A DNA stretch of 64,000 bases from Acidimicrobiia bacterium (lineage in GTDB: Bacteria > Actinomycetota > Acidimicrobiia > Spongiisociales > ZC4RG35), in assembly GCA_040905905.1 (NCBI GenBank), contig JBBDQN010000032.1:30796-94795 (forward strand). Direction: 5' to 3'. The position numbers and the translations under genes were made by a program. Positions 2,679 to 23,309 of the stretch are shown piece after piece. Every line of letters begins with the position of its first letter. Positions within the stretch are counted from its first letter, which is position 1. A model generated the notes under the pieces. The model was not told where the DNA came from. It searched no databases and saw only the letters and a program-made list of their open reading frames with translations.

Positions 2679-5671
2679 GTGACGAATCCCTCCCGCCCCT
2701 CTGGCCAGGCCGGACACACCAGTCGGAGTCGACAGCGCCCGCAATGTGGCCCCGGCAGGGGGGTCCAGTCTTCGGCGGCGATGGCGGCGGCCACCCGGCG
2801 CAACTCCTCCGCAACGACGGGGAGATTGGCCTGGTCGAACGAACGGGTGATGCCTGCCAGCGGATACCAGAGTTCAGCCTCCGTTGGGGTACCCCATGCT
2901 GCCAACTCCGGGTCCGCCGCCACTGCCAGCAGATAGAACCCGAGCTGGAGCGATCGTTTGGAGTCCGTGACCGTCGCCGCGGTCTTGCTGGTCTTGTAGT
3001 CGACCACCCTGAGCTCACCCGTCTTGTGGCTTTCGATCCGGTCCGAGTAGCCGGTCCAGCTGTGGCCGTCGAGCTCGAGCGTCAACCTGCGCTCGAGGAC
3101 GACCGGTATGGCAACGCCTCCGGGCCACTCCGCATACATCTTCTCGAGGAGCTGGCGACCCCGGTGATGCCAAGCCTGATTGAGCACCGGTGAGCCGAAG
3201 TTGGCCGACCTCTCCCAGACTTGATCGAGGACCTCGAGGGCGCGGTCAAGCCCGGAGTTGGGCTGGCGTTGTTCAACCGCCTCCTTCTCGGCCACCTCCA
3301 GGACTTCGTGGATCAAAGACCCGAACTCGGCATAGGGGCCGGACTCCTGGGCCGTCTGCACTCGTCTCTCTAGCGCGTATCGACGGGGACAGCTCGAATA
3401 AGCGTCGGCCTGGCTGGGAGACAGGACCAGGGGCAGGCTCACCAGCGGCGAGTCGGGGCCGCGCTCGGGGGCGCCGGCAAACGCCGCGGCGTCCCACAAC
3501 GGCGTCGGGGGCGAGGCCAGAGTGGCCAGCGCGGCCAACCGGCGTGAGGCGCTCTGGGCGGGATCGGTGAAGAGTTGTCGGAGGCTGGCCTGGGCTTCGG
3601 TGACTGTCACGGGCCGACGGTCGGGATCGCGGGAGGGGGCGCCGAGCTGGTCGAAGCCGTCGGCTCCTACCGCCGCCAGCAGAAACCGGGAGGGCCGTCG
3701 TTCACCTTCGTCGATGGCTGCCGAGGTTGCGGTCCACACCACCCGGCGTCTGGCCCTGGTCATGGCCGTGTAGGCCAGGCGCATCTCCTCCTGAAGTCGT
3801 AGCCGGACCGGGTTTTCGGCGGCGGCGTAGGTCGGGGACAACAACTCCGGCCGCAACAAGGCCCGGGAACGACGGAGATCGGGGAACACACCTTCGGCAG
3901 CGTCGGCGATGAAAACCACTTCGAACTCGAGGCCTTTGGCCTGGTGGAGGGTTGTCAGGGTGATGCGGTCGTGACGCCGTCCCAACAAGCTGTAGAGAGG
4001 GGTTGCTTCGAAGTCGTCGTGTTCGGCCAGGCGCCGGACGTCGAGGAGGGTGACAGACGGGTCGCGTTCTTCCTGGCGATCGAGTACCTGGGCGAACGCT
4101 GCCCAAGCCGCTCTGTAGTCGGCAAGGTGGGGATCACCCACTAGCCGTTCCAGTTGGGGAAGTGAGGTCCAGAGGTGCCAGAACCCTTGGTTGGCGCCCA
4201 GTTCTACGGCCCAGCCGGGATCCCGCAAGAGCTCCGCCAGCGGCGAGCCCTCGTCGAGGTCGCGGTCGAGCACTGAGCTCCACGGAGCGAAGTTGCGTTG
4301 CCGGTTGCGAAGAAGGTTTCGTTCGGCGGACAAGGCCAGCCCAAAGAGTGGACCGAGCAATATCCGACGGATTGCCCGATCGACTTCGTCGAAGGAAACC
4401 GAACCTGTCGAACTCTCGCCGGCCGCGGCCAGCGCCAGGTCGAAGACGAGCTGGACCGCAGGATGGTCGACCAGGCGGCGGTCGGGAGCATCGTGAGGGA
4501 TGTGGCGTCGCTCCAGGGACCGGGATAGCTCCGGCAAGAGATGGCGGGTCGTTCGCACCAAGACGGCGATGTTGTGCCACTCGAGGCCTTCGGTTCTGAC
4601 CAGGTGCTCAACCTCGGAGGCAATCCATTCAGCCTCGGCTGTCGCCTGGTCGAAGACGTAGGCCTCCACCCTCCCCTGATGTGCAGCCGGGCGGACGGGT
4701 CCGGCACCTCCTGGCAAGTCACCTCCGGCGACGATTCGCAAGGCACTGCTCAAGATCTCGGCGGGCACACGAAAACTCTGAGTGAGGATGAGCCGGCGGG
4801 GCTGGCCGAAAGACCCAAAGCGGGCACCAAACTCGGCGACATTGGCAATCTCGGCGCCCCGGAACGAATACACGGACTGGTACGGGTCGGCGGCCACTGT
4901 GATATTGCCGTGATTGGCCACCAACAACTCCAGCAGACGTGCCTGGGCAGGGGCGGTGTCCTGGTATTCATCAACCAACACATACCGAAACTGTTCACCA
5001 AGGGTGGCGGCGACACTCGGCTGTTCCAGACAACTGACCGCTGCTGCCTGGAGACCGCCGTAGTCGATCCGCCCAAGTCGCTCGAGTTCGAGGTCGTATC
5101 GAGTCATGAATCCGCTGAGCGCCCGCCATTGCGGGCGGCCGATCGCCAGGTCGGCGAGGTGACCGGGACCGAGAAGGCGTTCCCGGCTGCGGAGAAGGAA
5201 GTCGGCCAGTTCCTGGCCAAGGGTGTTGGTCGTGAGGAGGGGTCGCAGCGTCAGCGGCCACTCGGAAGGATCCTCCCCGCCGAGGAGGTCCGTGACCAGC
5301 GCCACCTGCTCGGGCCCGGTGAGGAGCGACGGGACCTCACGCCAACCGTGCACTGCGGGTCCATGGACCTCTAGCAGACGGTGAGCGAAGGAGTGGAAGG
5401 TGGAGGCGCCGACGCCGGGACCACCCGATGGGAGGCTGGCAACGACCCTGTGGCTCAACTCCCCGGCGGCCCGGCGCGAAAAGGTGAGGATGAGGATCTG
5501 GGAAGGTTTGGCCTTGCCCGATTCGACGAGATGGGCGGCCCGACCCACCAGGAATTCGGTCTTACCGGTGCCTGGCCCGGCCACGACCAACTGTGGTCCG
5601 TCGCAATTAGCAATCGCTTCTGGCCACCCGTCGGGTTCGACCCTGATGTCAATGAGGTTTGCTGATGTCAT
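2675..5671 (-). CDS. UvrD/AdnA-like SF1 helicase with C-terminal RecB-type (Cys4) nuclease
   Basis: ORF 2675..5800. Start trimmed to ATG 5671 (MTSANLIDIR) because the 43 upstream codons are Cys/Arg-rich and overlap the divergent gene. Motifs: VVAGPGTGKTEF, LTFSRRAAGEL, VLVDEYQDT, AADPYQSVYSFRGA, LHQAKGLEFEVVFI, LAYTAMTRARRRV. C-terminal VVDYKTSK nuclease motif plus SCPRRY...CGRCRLRLVC. Confidence 0.85.
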   Translation of the reverse strand: MTSANLIDIRVEPDGWPEAIANCDGPQLVVAGPGTGKTEFLVGRAAHLVESGKAKPSQILILTFSRRAAGELSHRVVASLPSGGPGVGASTFHSFAHRLLEVHGPAVHGWREVPSLLTGPEQVALVTDLLGGEDPSEWPLTLRPLLTTNTLGQELADFLLRSRERLLGPGHLADLAIGRPQWRALSGFMTRYDLELERLGRIDYGGLQAAAVSCLEQPSVAATLGEQFRYVLVDEYQDTAPAQARLLELLVANHGNITVAADPYQSVYSFRGAEIANVAEFGARFGSFGQPRRLILTQSFRVPAEILSSALRIVAGGDLPGGAGPVRPAAHQGRVEAYVFDQATAEAEWIASEVEHLVRTEGLEWHNIAVLVRTTRHLLPELSRSLERRHIPHDAPDRRLVDHPAVQLVFDLALAAAGESSTGSVSFDEVDRAIRRILLGPLFGLALSAERNLLRNRQRNFAPWSSVLDRDLDEGSPLAELLRDPGWAVELGANQGFWHLWTSLPQLERLVGDPHLADYRAAWAAFAQVLDRQEERDPSVTLLDVRRLAEHDDFEATPLYSLLGRRHDRITLTTLHQAKGLEFEVVFIADAAEGVFPDLRRSRALLRPELLSPTYAAAENPVRLRLQEEMRLAYTAMTRARRRVVWTATSAAIDEGERRPSRFLLAAVGADGFDQLGAPSRDPDRRPVTVTEAQASLRQLFTDPAQSASRRLAALATLASPPTPLWDAAAFAGAPERGPDSPLVSLPLVLSPSQADAYSSCPRRYALERRVQTAQESGPYAEFGSLIHEVLEVAEKEAVEQRQPNSGLDRALEVLDQVWERSANFGSPVLNQAWHHRGRQLLEKMYAEWPGGVAIPVVLERRLTLELDGHSWTGYSDRIESHKTGELRVVDYKTSKTAATVTDSKRSLQLGFYLLAVAADPELAAWGTPTEAELWYPLAGITRSFDQANLPVVAEELRRVAAAIAAEDWTPLPGPHCGRCRLRLVCPAWPEGREGFVT

Positions 5672-6489
5672 CTCCACGAGTAGGCATTGTGGACAGAAAA
5701 ACACGCCAGGTCGACAACAATGCCGTCGTGGTCCACCCGGTTGCAGCCAAAGGCTTTGAGGAGAGTCAACGATACGACCGTGGTCGCCCGGGATATCCAC
5801 CTCAGGCTGTCGATTGGCTGCGGCTAAACCTTGGTTTAGGGCCAGGAAAGCTGACGGCGGACGTGGCGAGCGGGACTGGCAAGCTCACGGGCTCTCTCGC
5901 AGAGGATGGAAGCGGGGTGATCGGTCTTGAGCCAGTTGCGTCTATGCGTCGCCAGTTCCTGATCAACTGCCGGTCCGTTCCTTGTGTCGGGGCGGTAGCC
6001 GAGAGACTCCCTCTCCGTTCAGGTTGCCTGGATGCAATCACGGTGGCTCAGGCATTTCATTGGTTCGATGCGCCTCGGGCCTTGGAGGAGTTTCACCGAG
6101 TGCTGAGGCCGCAGGGTCGAGTGGGCTTGATTTGGAACGTGCGTGATCGATCAGTGGACTGGATTGAGCGTCTCTGGCAGGTCATGGACCGCGTGGAGAG
6201 ACACGCTCCCTGGCGTGACCATGATCGCCTGCCCCTGGCTGGTGTGGCCGGGGCAGCAGGATTCGGCCCCATTCAGCAGGCACAATTCCACCATGTTCAT
6301 ACGATCGATCGGCAAACACTGGTCGACCGGTTTTGCTCGGTCAGTCATGTTGCCGTGCTGTCCGAACCTGAGCGGCAGAGCGTGATCGACGAGGTCCTGT
6401 CGGTTGTTGACGAACACCCTTCAACAAAGGGCCAGCCAACACTGGCGATTCCCTACCGGGTTGACGCTTATTGGATGGAGCGGATCTGA
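5659..6489 (+). CDS. class I SAM-dependent methyltransferase
   Basis: ORF track. YDRGRPGYPP N-terminal signature and ADVASGTGKLTG (motif I-like), then RSGCLDAITVAQAFHWF. The real start may be the in-frame GTG at 5728 (VHPVAAKGF). Confidence 0.7.
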   Translation: MLMSSPRVGIVDRKTRQVDNNAVVVHPVAAKGFEESQRYDRGRPGYPPQAVDWLRLNLGLGPGKLTADVASGTGKLTGSLAEDGSGVIGLEPVASMRRQFLINCRSVPCVGAVAERLPLRSGCLDAITVAQAFHWFDAPRALEEFHRVLRPQGRVGLIWNVRDRSVDWIERLWQVMDRVERHAPWRDHDRLPLAGVAGAAGFGPIQQAQFHHVHTIDRQTLVDRFCSVSHVAVLSEPERQSVIDEVLSVVDEHPSTKGQPTLAIPYRVDAYWMERI

Positions 6490-21907: not shown

Positions 21908-22429
21908 CTAGATGAACAGCTGAACGTCGGCGTCACCGGCGAAGTCGAGGAAGGCAGCAGCCCCCGCGACGAGGCAGCCGTCGATGAGGTCGCGGTCCTT
22001 GACGCCCATCACTCCCATGGTGGTTGAGCATGCGAAGAACTTGACGCCCTGGCCTTTGGCCATCTCGATGAACTCGGTGACGGGAGGCATCTTGGCGTCG
22101 CGCATCCACTTCTTCATGATCCCGGTGGCGGCGGCAGTGGCGCCCGGAATTGCTCCCAGAAGATTGGGCAGCTGTATGGGTCCCGAAGGATTGGCGAGCG
22201 ACGCCACCTTCAGTTTCGGGAGACGTTTGCGGTGGATGATGTCGAGTCCGTAGAACGTGAAATATACCCCGGCCTCCCAACCCAGGCTGGCGGCGGTGGT
22301 CGCCAGGATCAGAGGTGGGTACGCCTGATCCAGGGTTCCTTTGGAGGCAACCAGGGCGATGCGCTTGGGTCGGCGGGCAGGCTCCGCTTCCGAATCAGTC
22401 GGCGCCAGGTTGAGCGCAGCGGTAGTCAT
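21908..22429 (-). CDS. DsrE/DsrF-like sulfur-relay family protein
   Basis: KRIALVASKGTLDQAYPPLILATTAASLGWEAGVYFTFYGL...FFACSTTMGVMG. 4-nt overlap with the TusA-like gene. Confidence 0.65.
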   Translation of the reverse strand: MTTAALNLAPTDSEAEPARRPKRIALVASKGTLDQAYPPLILATTAASLGWEAGVYFTFYGLDIIHRKRLPKLKVASLANPSGPIQLPNLLGAIPGATAAATGIMKKWMRDAKMPPVTEFIEMAKGQGVKFFACSTTMGVMGVKDRDLIDGCLVAGAAAFLDFAGDADVQLFI

Positions 22430-22677
22430 CGTGGTGATCCCTTCTCTATCCAGAAGAGCTGGCGGCTTCCCTGGTTGTCGGCGCCAAGCAACGCATCGCC
22501 GCGCTGGCGAGCCAGGGCAGGGATGTCTTCGAGGGCTCCAGGGTCGGTGGTGATGATGTGCAGCACCTCACCGGTGGCGAGGCGGTTGAGCACCAACCCC
22601 GCCTTGTAGACCGGCAACGGGCACAACAGCCCGGAGGTATCGAGGGTCTCGGTTGGTTCTTTTTTCGGCGTGGCCAT
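22426..22677 (-). CDS. TusA/SirA-family sulfur carrier protein
   Basis: LDTSGLLCPLPVYKAGLVLNRL with the CPxP active-site motif. 83 aa. Confidence 0.8.
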   Translation of the reverse strand: MATPKKEPTETLDTSGLLCPLPVYKAGLVLNRLATGEVLHIITTDPGALEDIPALARQRGDALLGADNQGSRQLFWIEKGSPR

Positions 22678-22689
22678 ACGGTGTCCTTC

Positions 22690-23106
22690 CTAACTTCCGT
22701 CTTCCGTCTTCGGTCTTCCGGGATCCCTTCCTCGGCGAGTCCGTCCGCGAAAAAGCTCGTGTACTTGAACCCCGGGTCGGGTGAGATCCCCACGGTCAGA
22801 CCTGGCGAGTCGAGCCGGGTGGTCGCCTCGACCACGGCACCGGTCGAGGGCCCCACCATTAACGCTTCCTCCCGGAAGAGTCGCTTGGTCATGGAATAGA
22901 TAGGCGGCGGCCCGATCCTTGATGGAGCCGAAAGGGTTGAACCACTCGAGCTTCAGATAGACCTGGCCGGGAGGCGGCACGATCCGGCTTACCAGGACCA
23001 TTGGACTCGGATTGTCGAGGTCGGGCAAGAGTTGGCGGATGTCGTCGAACCGTCTCAAACGGCGATCACTTTGCAGTTGTAGTTGTCTGGATATCGAGGT
23101 GGTCAA
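22690..23106 (-). pseudogene. cysteine synthase (CysK/CysM family) remnant with large internal deletion and frameshift
   Basis: The TTG-start frame gives the PLP-enzyme N-terminus ...VYLKLEWFNPFGSIKDRAAAYL and then nonsense. The overlapping frame (ORF 22446..22892) gives the family C-terminus TKRLFREEALMVGPSTGAVVEA...GISPDPGFKYTSFF. The ~170-200 aa in between are absent. Confidence 0.7.
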
Positions 23107-23118
23107 AGGCCTTCTCCC

Positions 23119-23156
23119 GGAAAAGAAAAAGACCCGCCCATTTGCCGGTGCGGGTC
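23119..23156 (-). terminator. intrinsic terminator (attenuator candidate)
   Basis: Minus-sense GACCCGC-ACCGGCAAAUGG-GCGGGUC followed by UUUUUCUUUU. It lies between the poly-Cys sORF and the RBS/TTG of the cysteine-synthase remnant. Confidence 0.7.
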
Positions 23157-23184
23157 TCGAGTGGAGTCTTGTCGCAGTTGAGCG

Positions 23185-23265
23185 CTAAGCAGTCTCCTCG
23201 CCGCACGGCACGGCCGCACACACGCAAGCGCAGAGACAGGCGCAGGAGGTACGGGCGAGGTTCAT
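23185..23265 (-). CDS. polycysteine leader peptide (26 aa)
   Basis: ATG 23265 to TAG 23187-23185: MNLARTSCACLCACVCAAVPCGEETA, 6 Cys including C-x-C-x-C-x-C-x-C. A TACACT -10-like hexamer lies 9 nt upstream of the ATG (leaderless or near-leaderless). The terminator is 28 nt downstream. Confidence 0.55.
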   Translation of the reverse strand: MNLARTSCACLCACVCAAVPCGEETA

Positions 23266-23309
23266 CCGAGGTTGAGTGTACGCACCTTTTGGTGATGGGA
23301 CAATGGCCA

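Follow-up and report, generated by a model that had tools for sequence, protein, structure and literature searches.

We suggest that the minus-strand leader of a short sulfur operon, located in a 64-kb stretch of DNA (the window; 63.6% G+C) from an uncultured member of the Acidimicrobiia, is probably a ribosome-mediated (leader-peptide) transcription attenuator in the style of trp and his, sensing charged tRNA-Cys. The leader contains a cysteine-rich short open reading frame (sORF), an intrinsic terminator and, at the 3' end of the sORF, a candidate antiterminator strand. It stands ahead of the remains of a cysteine synthase gene, tusA and a dsrE2-like gene, an operon that, to judge from its sequence, is most likely switched on when cysteine runs short. 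The switch is of a classic type; in the literature searched, it has not been described for cysteine in the Acidimicrobiia. An earlier note on this DNA had proposed such an attenuator from the letters of the window, and its interpretation is supported on every point open to sequence comparison. The sORF with its Cys run, the -10 hexamer 9 nucleotides (nt) upstream, the terminator, the Shine-Dalgarno sequence, the TTG start codon and the complementary GUGCGG and CCGCAC segments all lie where it had placed them.

From the anatomy, geometry and gene context that the loci document, we infer that the sORF is translated, that ribosomes stall on it and that a switch responsive to cysteine results; these steps would work in the following way. 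Transcription would start at the ATG of the sORF or a few bases before it, and a ribosome would load without a Shine-Dalgarno sequence and trail the polymerase. When Cys-tRNA is ample, the ribosome would reach the stop codon and cover, or sterically block, the strand GCCGUGCGGCGAGG at the 3' end of the sORF; the hairpin with its U-tract would form, and transcription would end about 15 nt ahead of the operon's ribosome-binding site. When Cys-tRNA is scarce, the ribosome would stall on the five alternating Cys codons with its leading edge just short of GUGCGG, and the freed GUGCGG would pair with the emerging CCGCAC(CGG) of the terminator 5' arm, so that no terminator would form and the polymerase would read into cysteine synthase-tusA-dsrE2. 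With no ribosome on the transcript, pairing between the Cys-codon region and the antiterminator strand, predicted in several relatives, would make termination the default. The genes under this putative control, a first gene of the CysK/CysM family followed by tusA-dsrE2, are of kinds predicted to make or handle cysteine or sulfur. Given that the cysteine synthase gene of the window has decayed, the attenuator there would now govern tusA-dsrE2.

Relatives of the operon were fetched by a DsrE2 protein scan with one genome per species, and 80 loci out of approximately 189 DsrE2-linked loci were taken; because the DsrE2 query carries no leader information, the set is unbiased as to the leader. All 80 loci (designated here by L numbers) come from metagenome-assembled genomes, most of them labelled Acidimicrobiia (or Acidimicrobiaceae) and the rest carrying broader or other labels. 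DsrE2 identity across them ranges from 68% to 91%, and tusA adjoins dsrE2 in 79, the remaining locus, L024, being without a tusA match. Seven loci are too short upstream to be judged. Among the 73 that can be assessed, a Cys-rich sORF is found at the same place in 72, one of which (L071) was recovered by a covariance model of the element (R1). The earlier note had asked for Cys-run sORFs to be sought at other sulfur or cysteine loci of this and related genomes and had named loss of the run in orthologous leaders as evidence against its proposal; what is observed is the opposite. The sORF precedes an intact CysK/CysM-family enzyme of 319-337 amino acids in 61 loci and lies directly ahead of tusA in about nine, and the intact orthologues match cysKM/CysM models as well as O-acetylserine sulfhydrylase structures. 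The sole assessable locus without a leader, L060, has tRNA-gene-like DNA followed by a tandemly duplicated segment at about 2200-2700, upstream of its cysteine synthase gene. All anatomical counts given below refer to 72 leaders, that is, 71 loci plus the window, with L071 left out.

The predicted leader peptides are 18-32 residues long (median 22) and contain 3-8 Cys (median 5). Nearly all of them (69 of 72) are distinct, and Cys makes up 22.5% of their residues while the remaining residues vary freely. TGY occurs 373 times in the frame of the sORF, against 57 and 71 times in the other two frames. The Cys run comprises 2-7 Cys in the relatives, with CC present in 51 leaders, CCC in 31 and C-x-C-x-C in 55. 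Of the leader Cys codons, 49% are TGT, the rarer of the two, as compared with 31% in long open reading frames (ORFs) of the same loci, a preference that reflects either a tuning of stalling sensitivity or a need for RNA pairing; in some leaders, UGUUG pairs with downstream CAACA segments. Nor can the Cys run of the window be put down to base composition. When the 64 kb are translated in six frames, the sORF is the sole segment with at least five Cys in 12 residues and the only occurrence of C-x-C-x-C-x-C-x-C; in 100 dinucleotide-preserving shuffles, the former feature averages 0.35 per shuffle and the latter never appears.

Upstream of the sORF, a TANNNT hexamer lies 6-11 nt before the start codon in all 72 leaders, most commonly as TACCAT, and the gap between the two is most often 8 nt (28 leaders) or 9 nt (25), with 10 nt seen in 11 leaders and 7 nt in 6. 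A TTGAC-type -35 element with at least four of six matches is present in 50 of the 67 leaders that had a TANNNT hexamer at first pass. The start codon is ATG in 65 leaders and GTG in 7, and none of the leaders has a Shine-Dalgarno sequence for the sORF. In the window there is no room for one between the -10 hexamer and the ATG, and hence the transcript would be leaderless or have some 3 nt at most ahead of the ATG.

Downstream of the sORF, the terminator that had been read in the window recurs throughout the family. A hairpin of -11 to -25 kcal/mol followed by at least five U in the next 8 nt is found in 68 leaders, 20-41 nt past the stop codon, and the other four have a hairpin with a weaker U-tail. 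The CCCG/CGGG core of the stem is invariant and the flanking pairs covary: compensatory changes on both sides of a pair occur in 46 alignment cells, compared with 26.6 +/- 3.7 in shuffles, and none of 500 shuffles reaches 46. The downstream start codon follows the terminator at a median distance of 23 nt. In the window, the segment GACCCGC...GCGGGUC within the hairpin begins 28 nt past the stop codon of the sORF, and R1 recognizes the element with 77 bits (E = 1.4e-17); run with its filters off, R1 detects no second copy in the 64 kb, the next best score being 11 bits. A simple promoter/terminator scan reported no minus-strand site and missed the window hairpin as a result of its bulge and loop rules. 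The folding z-score of the whole window leader is unremarkable (-0.37), for which reason the structural significance of this single sequence is not used as evidence here. At a permissive threshold, the best Rfam scores were 13.8-20.3 bits, against gathering thresholds of 42-80, and the matches fell on the bare hairpin (Leu_leader, 13.8 bits).

The earlier note had also proposed that GUGCGG, in the 3' part of the sORF, offers an antiterminator alternative by pairing with CCGCAC in the terminator 5' arm, and this complementarity is retained at a conserved position. The 3' end of the sORF carries GYGYGG(G) in 66 leaders, usually within GCCGYGCGGG, and the motif can base-pair with CCCGCAC(CGG) in the terminator 5' arm; in a MAFFT alignment, the in-register pairing extends to 83.9% of cells, versus 22-60% when the strands are slid. 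The motif is read in any of the three frames (in 56, 9 and 1 leaders, with peptide examples such as P-C-G, P-R-G, R-V-R-P-G-E-V and T-G-A-A-R), which places the constraint on the RNA and not only on the peptide. In an alignment-free test, pairing with the arm of the same locus stood at -17.06 kcal/mol, against -15.77 kcal/mol for the arms of other loci, and none of 5000 permutations was as low; the terminator arms, taken as a positive control, gave -19.22 and -15.03 kcal/mol, respectively. The window contains two copies of GUGCGG, the core copy at 23206-23201 and an upstream copy at 23219-23214, with CCGCAC at 23153-23148.

Downstream of the A site, a ribosome shields about 12 nt of mRNA. Counted from the start of the final Cys codon in the run, the median distance to the motif is 14 nt (interquartile range 12-14), which fits a location just beyond the downstream edge of a ribosome stalled on that codon; the motif starts 7-24 nt before the stop codon, so that a terminating ribosome would cover all or part of it. 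In the window the corresponding distances of the core copy are 14 nt and 19 nt. The geometry hence agrees with the dependence on ribosome position that had been proposed for the antiterminator, since the site would lie under a ribosome that has reached the stop codon and beyond one that stalls on the Cys run. Ribosome-masked folding of transcripts cut before the terminator 3' arm, which gives a kinetic view, found the 5' arm engaged upstream in 88% of loci when the ribosome occupies a Cys codon; for a ribosome at the stop codon the share is 43%, and for ribosome-free transcripts it is 54%. L035 and L033 display clean four-segment behaviour in these folds: without a ribosome, the Cys-codon region (or the Ala codons preceding it) pairs with the antiterminator strand and acts as the fourth segment. 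In the folds of the window's own leader, the ribosome states are not separated.

That result is one of several that weigh against a transcription attenuator. In the window, 5'-arm engagement is 0.62 in every ribosome state, and shuffles give an antiterminator duplex as good as the real one (-15.0 kcal/mol; z = -0.04); the window's own leader is a weaker case than its relatives. The failure of its folds to separate the states is due in part to an ORF that continues five codons beyond the motif and to the upstream GUGCGG copy, which stays free. CGAG in the window also pairs with CUCG just before the stem, and a ribosome at the stop codon would still cover that part of the antiterminator. Across the family, the terminator is the minimum-energy fold at equilibrium in nearly all states, which means that any switch must be kinetic, as it is in trp. 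For the antiterminator, covariation by alignment column falls short of significance, its only event being a UA-to-CG double change in four sequences, and RNAalifold on the alignment cut before the 3' arm returned no consensus pairs; we therefore claim the antiterminator only on complementarity, on geometry and on the comparison of cognate with non-cognate arms. The 72 loci are, moreover, phylogenetically related, and owing to this kinship the shuffle and permutation counts overstate their independence. Finally, the usual distance from the -10 hexamer to the start site is 2-3 nt shorter than the 8-9 nt between the -10 hexamer and the ATG here, which leaves strict leaderlessness unproven and is compatible with a leader of 0-3 nt.

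The undivided folds of the window leader also enter the case for translational attenuation of the mycobacterial kind, in which the sORF would likewise sense Cys-tRNA and the output would be access to the ribosome-binding site or mRNA stability, the hairpin being a structural element or a partial terminator and not the switch. Such a pathway has a precedent in the characterised Cys sORF Ms5788A, which acts by Shine-Dalgarno sequestration, and the Shine-Dalgarno bases of the window are predicted to be paired with a probability of 0.93. Their partner, however, is not the Cys-codon tract: pairing between the two has a mean probability of 0.034 across the leaders and 0.001 in the window, and on this ground the model of a Cys tract sequestering the Shine-Dalgarno sequence was rejected. 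Pairing of the Shine-Dalgarno sequence with any base of the sORF has a mean probability of 0.14 across loci. The conserved partner of the 3' segment of the sORF is the terminator arm and not the Shine-Dalgarno sequence, and the U-tract kept directly after the hairpin in 68 of the 72 leaders is a feature for which Shine-Dalgarno masking has no need. We hence consider a translational output improbable, and the contrast that the earlier note had drawn with mycobacteria, an explicit terminator in place of sequestration, is upheld.

The sORF might instead be a small gene of its own, with its own terminator, coding for a functional Cys-rich micropeptide that binds metal or sulfur or is the precursor of a modified peptide. 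Its Cys-x-Cys runs do resemble metal- or sulfur-binding motifs, the neighbouring genes are sulfur carriers, and there is a recurrent P-C/R-G ending, with 56 of the 66 motifs in one reading frame. In the family, however, the number of Cys (3-8), their spacing (CxC versus CCCCC), the length of the peptide (18-32 codons) and its other residues all drift; the conserved 3' motif occurs in three frames, and what is kept is its geometry relative to the terminator. Leaders rich in Ile, Leu and Val, described below, have the same RNA design. With only the Cys codons and an RNA motif conserved, a functional micropeptide is distinctly unlikely. It is very unlikely that the promoter, sORF and terminator make up a stand-alone or dual-function trans-acting RNA, with the operon transcribed from elsewhere, or that they are juxtaposed incidentally: attenuator-derived RNAs can act in trans (rnTrpL) and the unit has its own promoter and terminator, but the promoter/terminator scan gave no other promoter-like site between terminator and operon, the element is always found upstream of the same operon, with 6-30 nt between it and the Shine-Dalgarno sequence, and a chance arrangement is ruled out by conservation and shuffles, so that position and conservation together exclude a purely trans-acting RNA or chance.

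The elements of the window leader, read directly from the sequence, are collected with the genes of the operon in Table 1; window coordinates throughout are on the minus strand unless stated otherwise. Compared with its orthologue in L001, the cysteine synthase gene of the window retains residues 1-69 and 252-316, the N-terminal ~69 residues in frame and the C-terminal ~65 residues in another frame (22937-22743), and about 595 nt, corresponding to residues ~70-251 of the orthologue, have been deleted. Two surviving parts in different frames with the sequence between them gone mark it as a genuine remnant, as the earlier note had called it. The attenuator, tusA and dsrE2 are intact beside the decayed gene, which is either a pseudogene of this genome or an assembly artefact.

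Table 1. Elements of the leader and operon in the window
Feature	Position	Strand	Details
-35-like hexamer TTGTCC	23298..23303	-	17 nt upstream of the -10 hexamer; 4/6 matches to TTGACA
-10 hexamer TACACT	23275..23280	-	exactly 9 nt ahead of the sORF ATG
Leader sORF MNLARTSCACLCACVCAAVPCGEETA	23185..23265	-	ATG at 23265; 26 codons plus TAG (23187-23185); 6 Cys
Cys-codon run C-x-C-x-C-x-C-x-C, putative ribosome stalling zone	23218..23244	-	codons 8, 10, 12, 14 and 16
Candidate antiterminator strand GCCGUGCGGCGAGG	23196..23209	-	GUGCGG core and flanks; complement of CUCG...CCGCACCGGC in the terminator 5' arm
Terminator hairpin GAGACCCGCACCGGCAAAUGGGCGGGUCUU	23129..23158	-	12 pairs and one bulge; -19.4 kcal/mol
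U-tract U5CU4	23121..23130	-	follows the hairpin
Shine-Dalgarno sequence GGGAGAAGG (23118-23110) and TTG (23106) of the first downstream ORF	23104..23118	-	
Cysteine synthase (CysK/CysM family) remnant	22690..23106	-	PALP N-terminus
tusA, sulfur-carrier protein with CPxP motif	22426..22677	-	Pfam TusA, E = 3.7e-17; NCBIfam match
dsrE2-like sulfur carrier gene, last of the operon	21908..22429	-	Pfam DrsE_2, E = 3.3e-40; NCBIfam DsrE2, E = 9.6e-43

Beyond the operon, recG on the plus strand converges on the dsrE2-like gene, and the genes upstream of the leader, rsmD and coaD, are divergent from it. The -35 region of the leader (23295-23303) overlaps the start region of rsmD (plus-strand ATG at 23295), an overlap that is kept in L001 and L002. 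A 75-codon ORF opening at ATG 23412 was rejected as a leader candidate; it lies antisense within rsmD and upstream of the conserved promoter, and it is not conserved. Also discarded were Cys-rich segments that several loci have about 515-560 nt upstream of tusA and that represent an alternative frame of the cysteine synthase gene. Some 350-560 nt upstream of tusA, L003, L005, L030, L046, L048, L054, L061, L067 and others contain a Cys/Arg-rich ..RRCCCGCWG.. segment, an off-frame reading of a conserved part of cysteine synthase that could be mistaken for a Cys sORF.

The same build extends to other pathways. A metagenome scan with the pattern GTGCGG...CCCGCAYC...GCGGGTTTT recovered further Cys leaders before cysM-tusA-dsrE2 and also, as a positive control, leaders rich in Ile, Leu and Val before ilvC-like and ilvD-like genes; these indicate that the RNA design is generic and that the codon run matches the pathway regulated. 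Leader ORFs ending in ..S(I/L)LVLVLITQPTGAGR.. with the GTGCGG/CCCGCAC design, followed by a ketol-acid reductoisomerase-like ORF, are present in L086, L095 (~4810-4975, matched strand), L104, L112, L137, L138, L148, L162, L169, L170, L176, L184, L186 and L192, and their features are those of a branched-chain amino-acid attenuator of the same build. In L082, L084 and L166, a leader ORF ..LLLALLIIGRGAGTG with the same terminator design precedes a dihydroxy-acid dehydratase-like ORF.

Two other arrangements, recovered by the same scan, hint at further members of a cysteine regulon. In L085 (~2420-2600), a leader MAMCICMDMCIARVRVGGHEG with four Met and three Cys and a terminator is followed by a pyridoxal-phosphate enzyme of Cys/Met metabolism (O-acetylhomoserine sulfhydrylase-like; metY-like), and is possibly a dual Met/Cys sensor. 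In L175 (and L194), a Cys leader MKKSCAANCMPCCCPTRCGEVSA with a terminator (~6240-6380, matched strand) precedes genes other than cysM-tusA-dsrE2, which in L175 comprise an ATP-grasp-like ORF, a luciferase-like monooxygenase, an M20-like peptidase and a fumarylacetoacetase-like ORF; this leader may belong to a second member of the regulon. We would venture, as a tentative proposal, that the Acidimicrobiia possess a multi-operon regulon that senses Cys-tRNA by means of terminators and not by Shine-Dalgarno masking, and in which tusA-dsrE2 is placed under cysteine-starvation control, its products serving as sulfur donors for assimilatory cysteine synthesis. If true, the control of tusA-dsrE2, with or without an adjacent CysM-like enzyme, would tie carriers of the "dissimilatory type" to cysteine synthesis. 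The regulatory link yields the functional prediction that the TusA-DsrE2 pairs of actinobacteria that do not oxidise sulfur serve cysteine biosynthesis.

We consider the main value of these observations to be a clean regulatory RNA family, together with this functional hint for TusA-DsrE2. The family is well populated, with 72 genomic examples in addition to the metagenomic ones, is unannotated and is absent from Rfam; R1 could hence improve the annotation of Acidimicrobiia genomes. It would add cysteine, with an explicit terminator and antiterminator, to the amino acids under classical attenuation in biosynthetic operons, and it indicates that the high-GC actinobacteria considered here use canonical U-tract terminators for attenuation. 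In the literature searched, we found no earlier description of an Acidimicrobiia attenuator or of a link between TusA/DsrE2 and cysteine synthase, and the Cys leaders reported earlier from actinobacteria either lack terminators, as predicted in 2005, or act on translation, as described in 2020.

The older of these two sets comprises predicted Cys leader peptides before cys and cbs operons of Mycobacterium, Propionibacterium acnes and Bifidobacterium longum (Seliverstov et al., 2005; PMC1262725). Like the element described here, they are short ORFs of actinobacteria that precede cysteine synthesis genes and have their Cys-codon runs close to the stop. They differ in having no conserved terminator hairpins, Rho-dependent termination having been suggested for them (PMC1262725), whereas the terminator here is explicit and conserved. 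The second set is formed by the mycobacterial polycysteine leaderless sORFs, Ms5788A/Rv0815A, Rv2334A and others (Canestrari et al., 2020; bioRxiv 10.1101/834739). For Ms5788A of M. smegmatis, attenuation has been shown to be translational, with the polycysteine tract pairing to the Shine-Dalgarno sequence downstream, and the authors left open whether the mechanism at the other mycobacterial loci is transcriptional (bioRxiv 10.1101/834739). Our element resembles these in that an unannotated sORF with Cys codons precedes cysteine or sulfur operons, would open the transcript or nearly so, and would have a stalled ribosome as its sensor. Ms5788A, however, has no terminator/antiterminator pair, whereas here a terminator with its U-tract is conserved; lineage and operon also differ, and the run of the window is C-x-C, its peptide lacking the consecutive Cys codons (CC) of which Canestrari et al. 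require at least two.

In the Rhodobacterales, uORFC-8-2, located upstream of cysS, has been predicted to be a ribosome-mediated attenuator (Brewer et al., 2021; PMC8632094). It shares with the present element conserved Cys codons and an intrinsic terminator stem with a U run. In contrast, it is alphaproteobacterial, regulates cysteinyl-tRNA synthetase, is unrelated in sequence and has its two tandem Cys codons, at ~14-15, inside the first of two stems. The element is hence analogous to the mycobacterial and Rhodobacterales families but does not belong to either. A further comparison may be made with the Cys-specific T-box leaders and the S-box/S-adenosylmethionine (SAM) riboswitches of the Firmicutes, in which a structured RNA senses uncharged tRNA or SAM directly, with no leader translation. 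These have in common with our proposal premature termination in the leaders of sulfur amino-acid genes, relieved on starvation, but the window leader has no such structure and no such Rfam match.

The closest likeness is to the classical leader-peptide attenuators, represented by the trp, his, leu, thr and ilv operons in the Proteobacteria and by the trp and ilvB leaders in the Actinobacteria. As in those systems, a short ORF with a run of codons for the end product is followed by an intrinsic terminator ahead of the first gene of the operon. The candidate antiterminator strand, with which the ORF ends, would compete for the terminator 5' arm, and for several relatives a four-segment design is predicted, in which an upstream segment pairs with that strand. 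The element departs from them in that cysteine would be sensed, in that its sORF has no Shine-Dalgarno sequence and begins 6-11 nt past the -10 hexamer, in that the operon couples cysteine synthase with the TusA/DsrE2 carriers, and in that it matches no Rfam family. With these differences, and with its antiterminator a candidate, it possesses the features by which the trp/his class is recognized at the sequence level and, on the evidence of its anatomy, would work like a member of that class.

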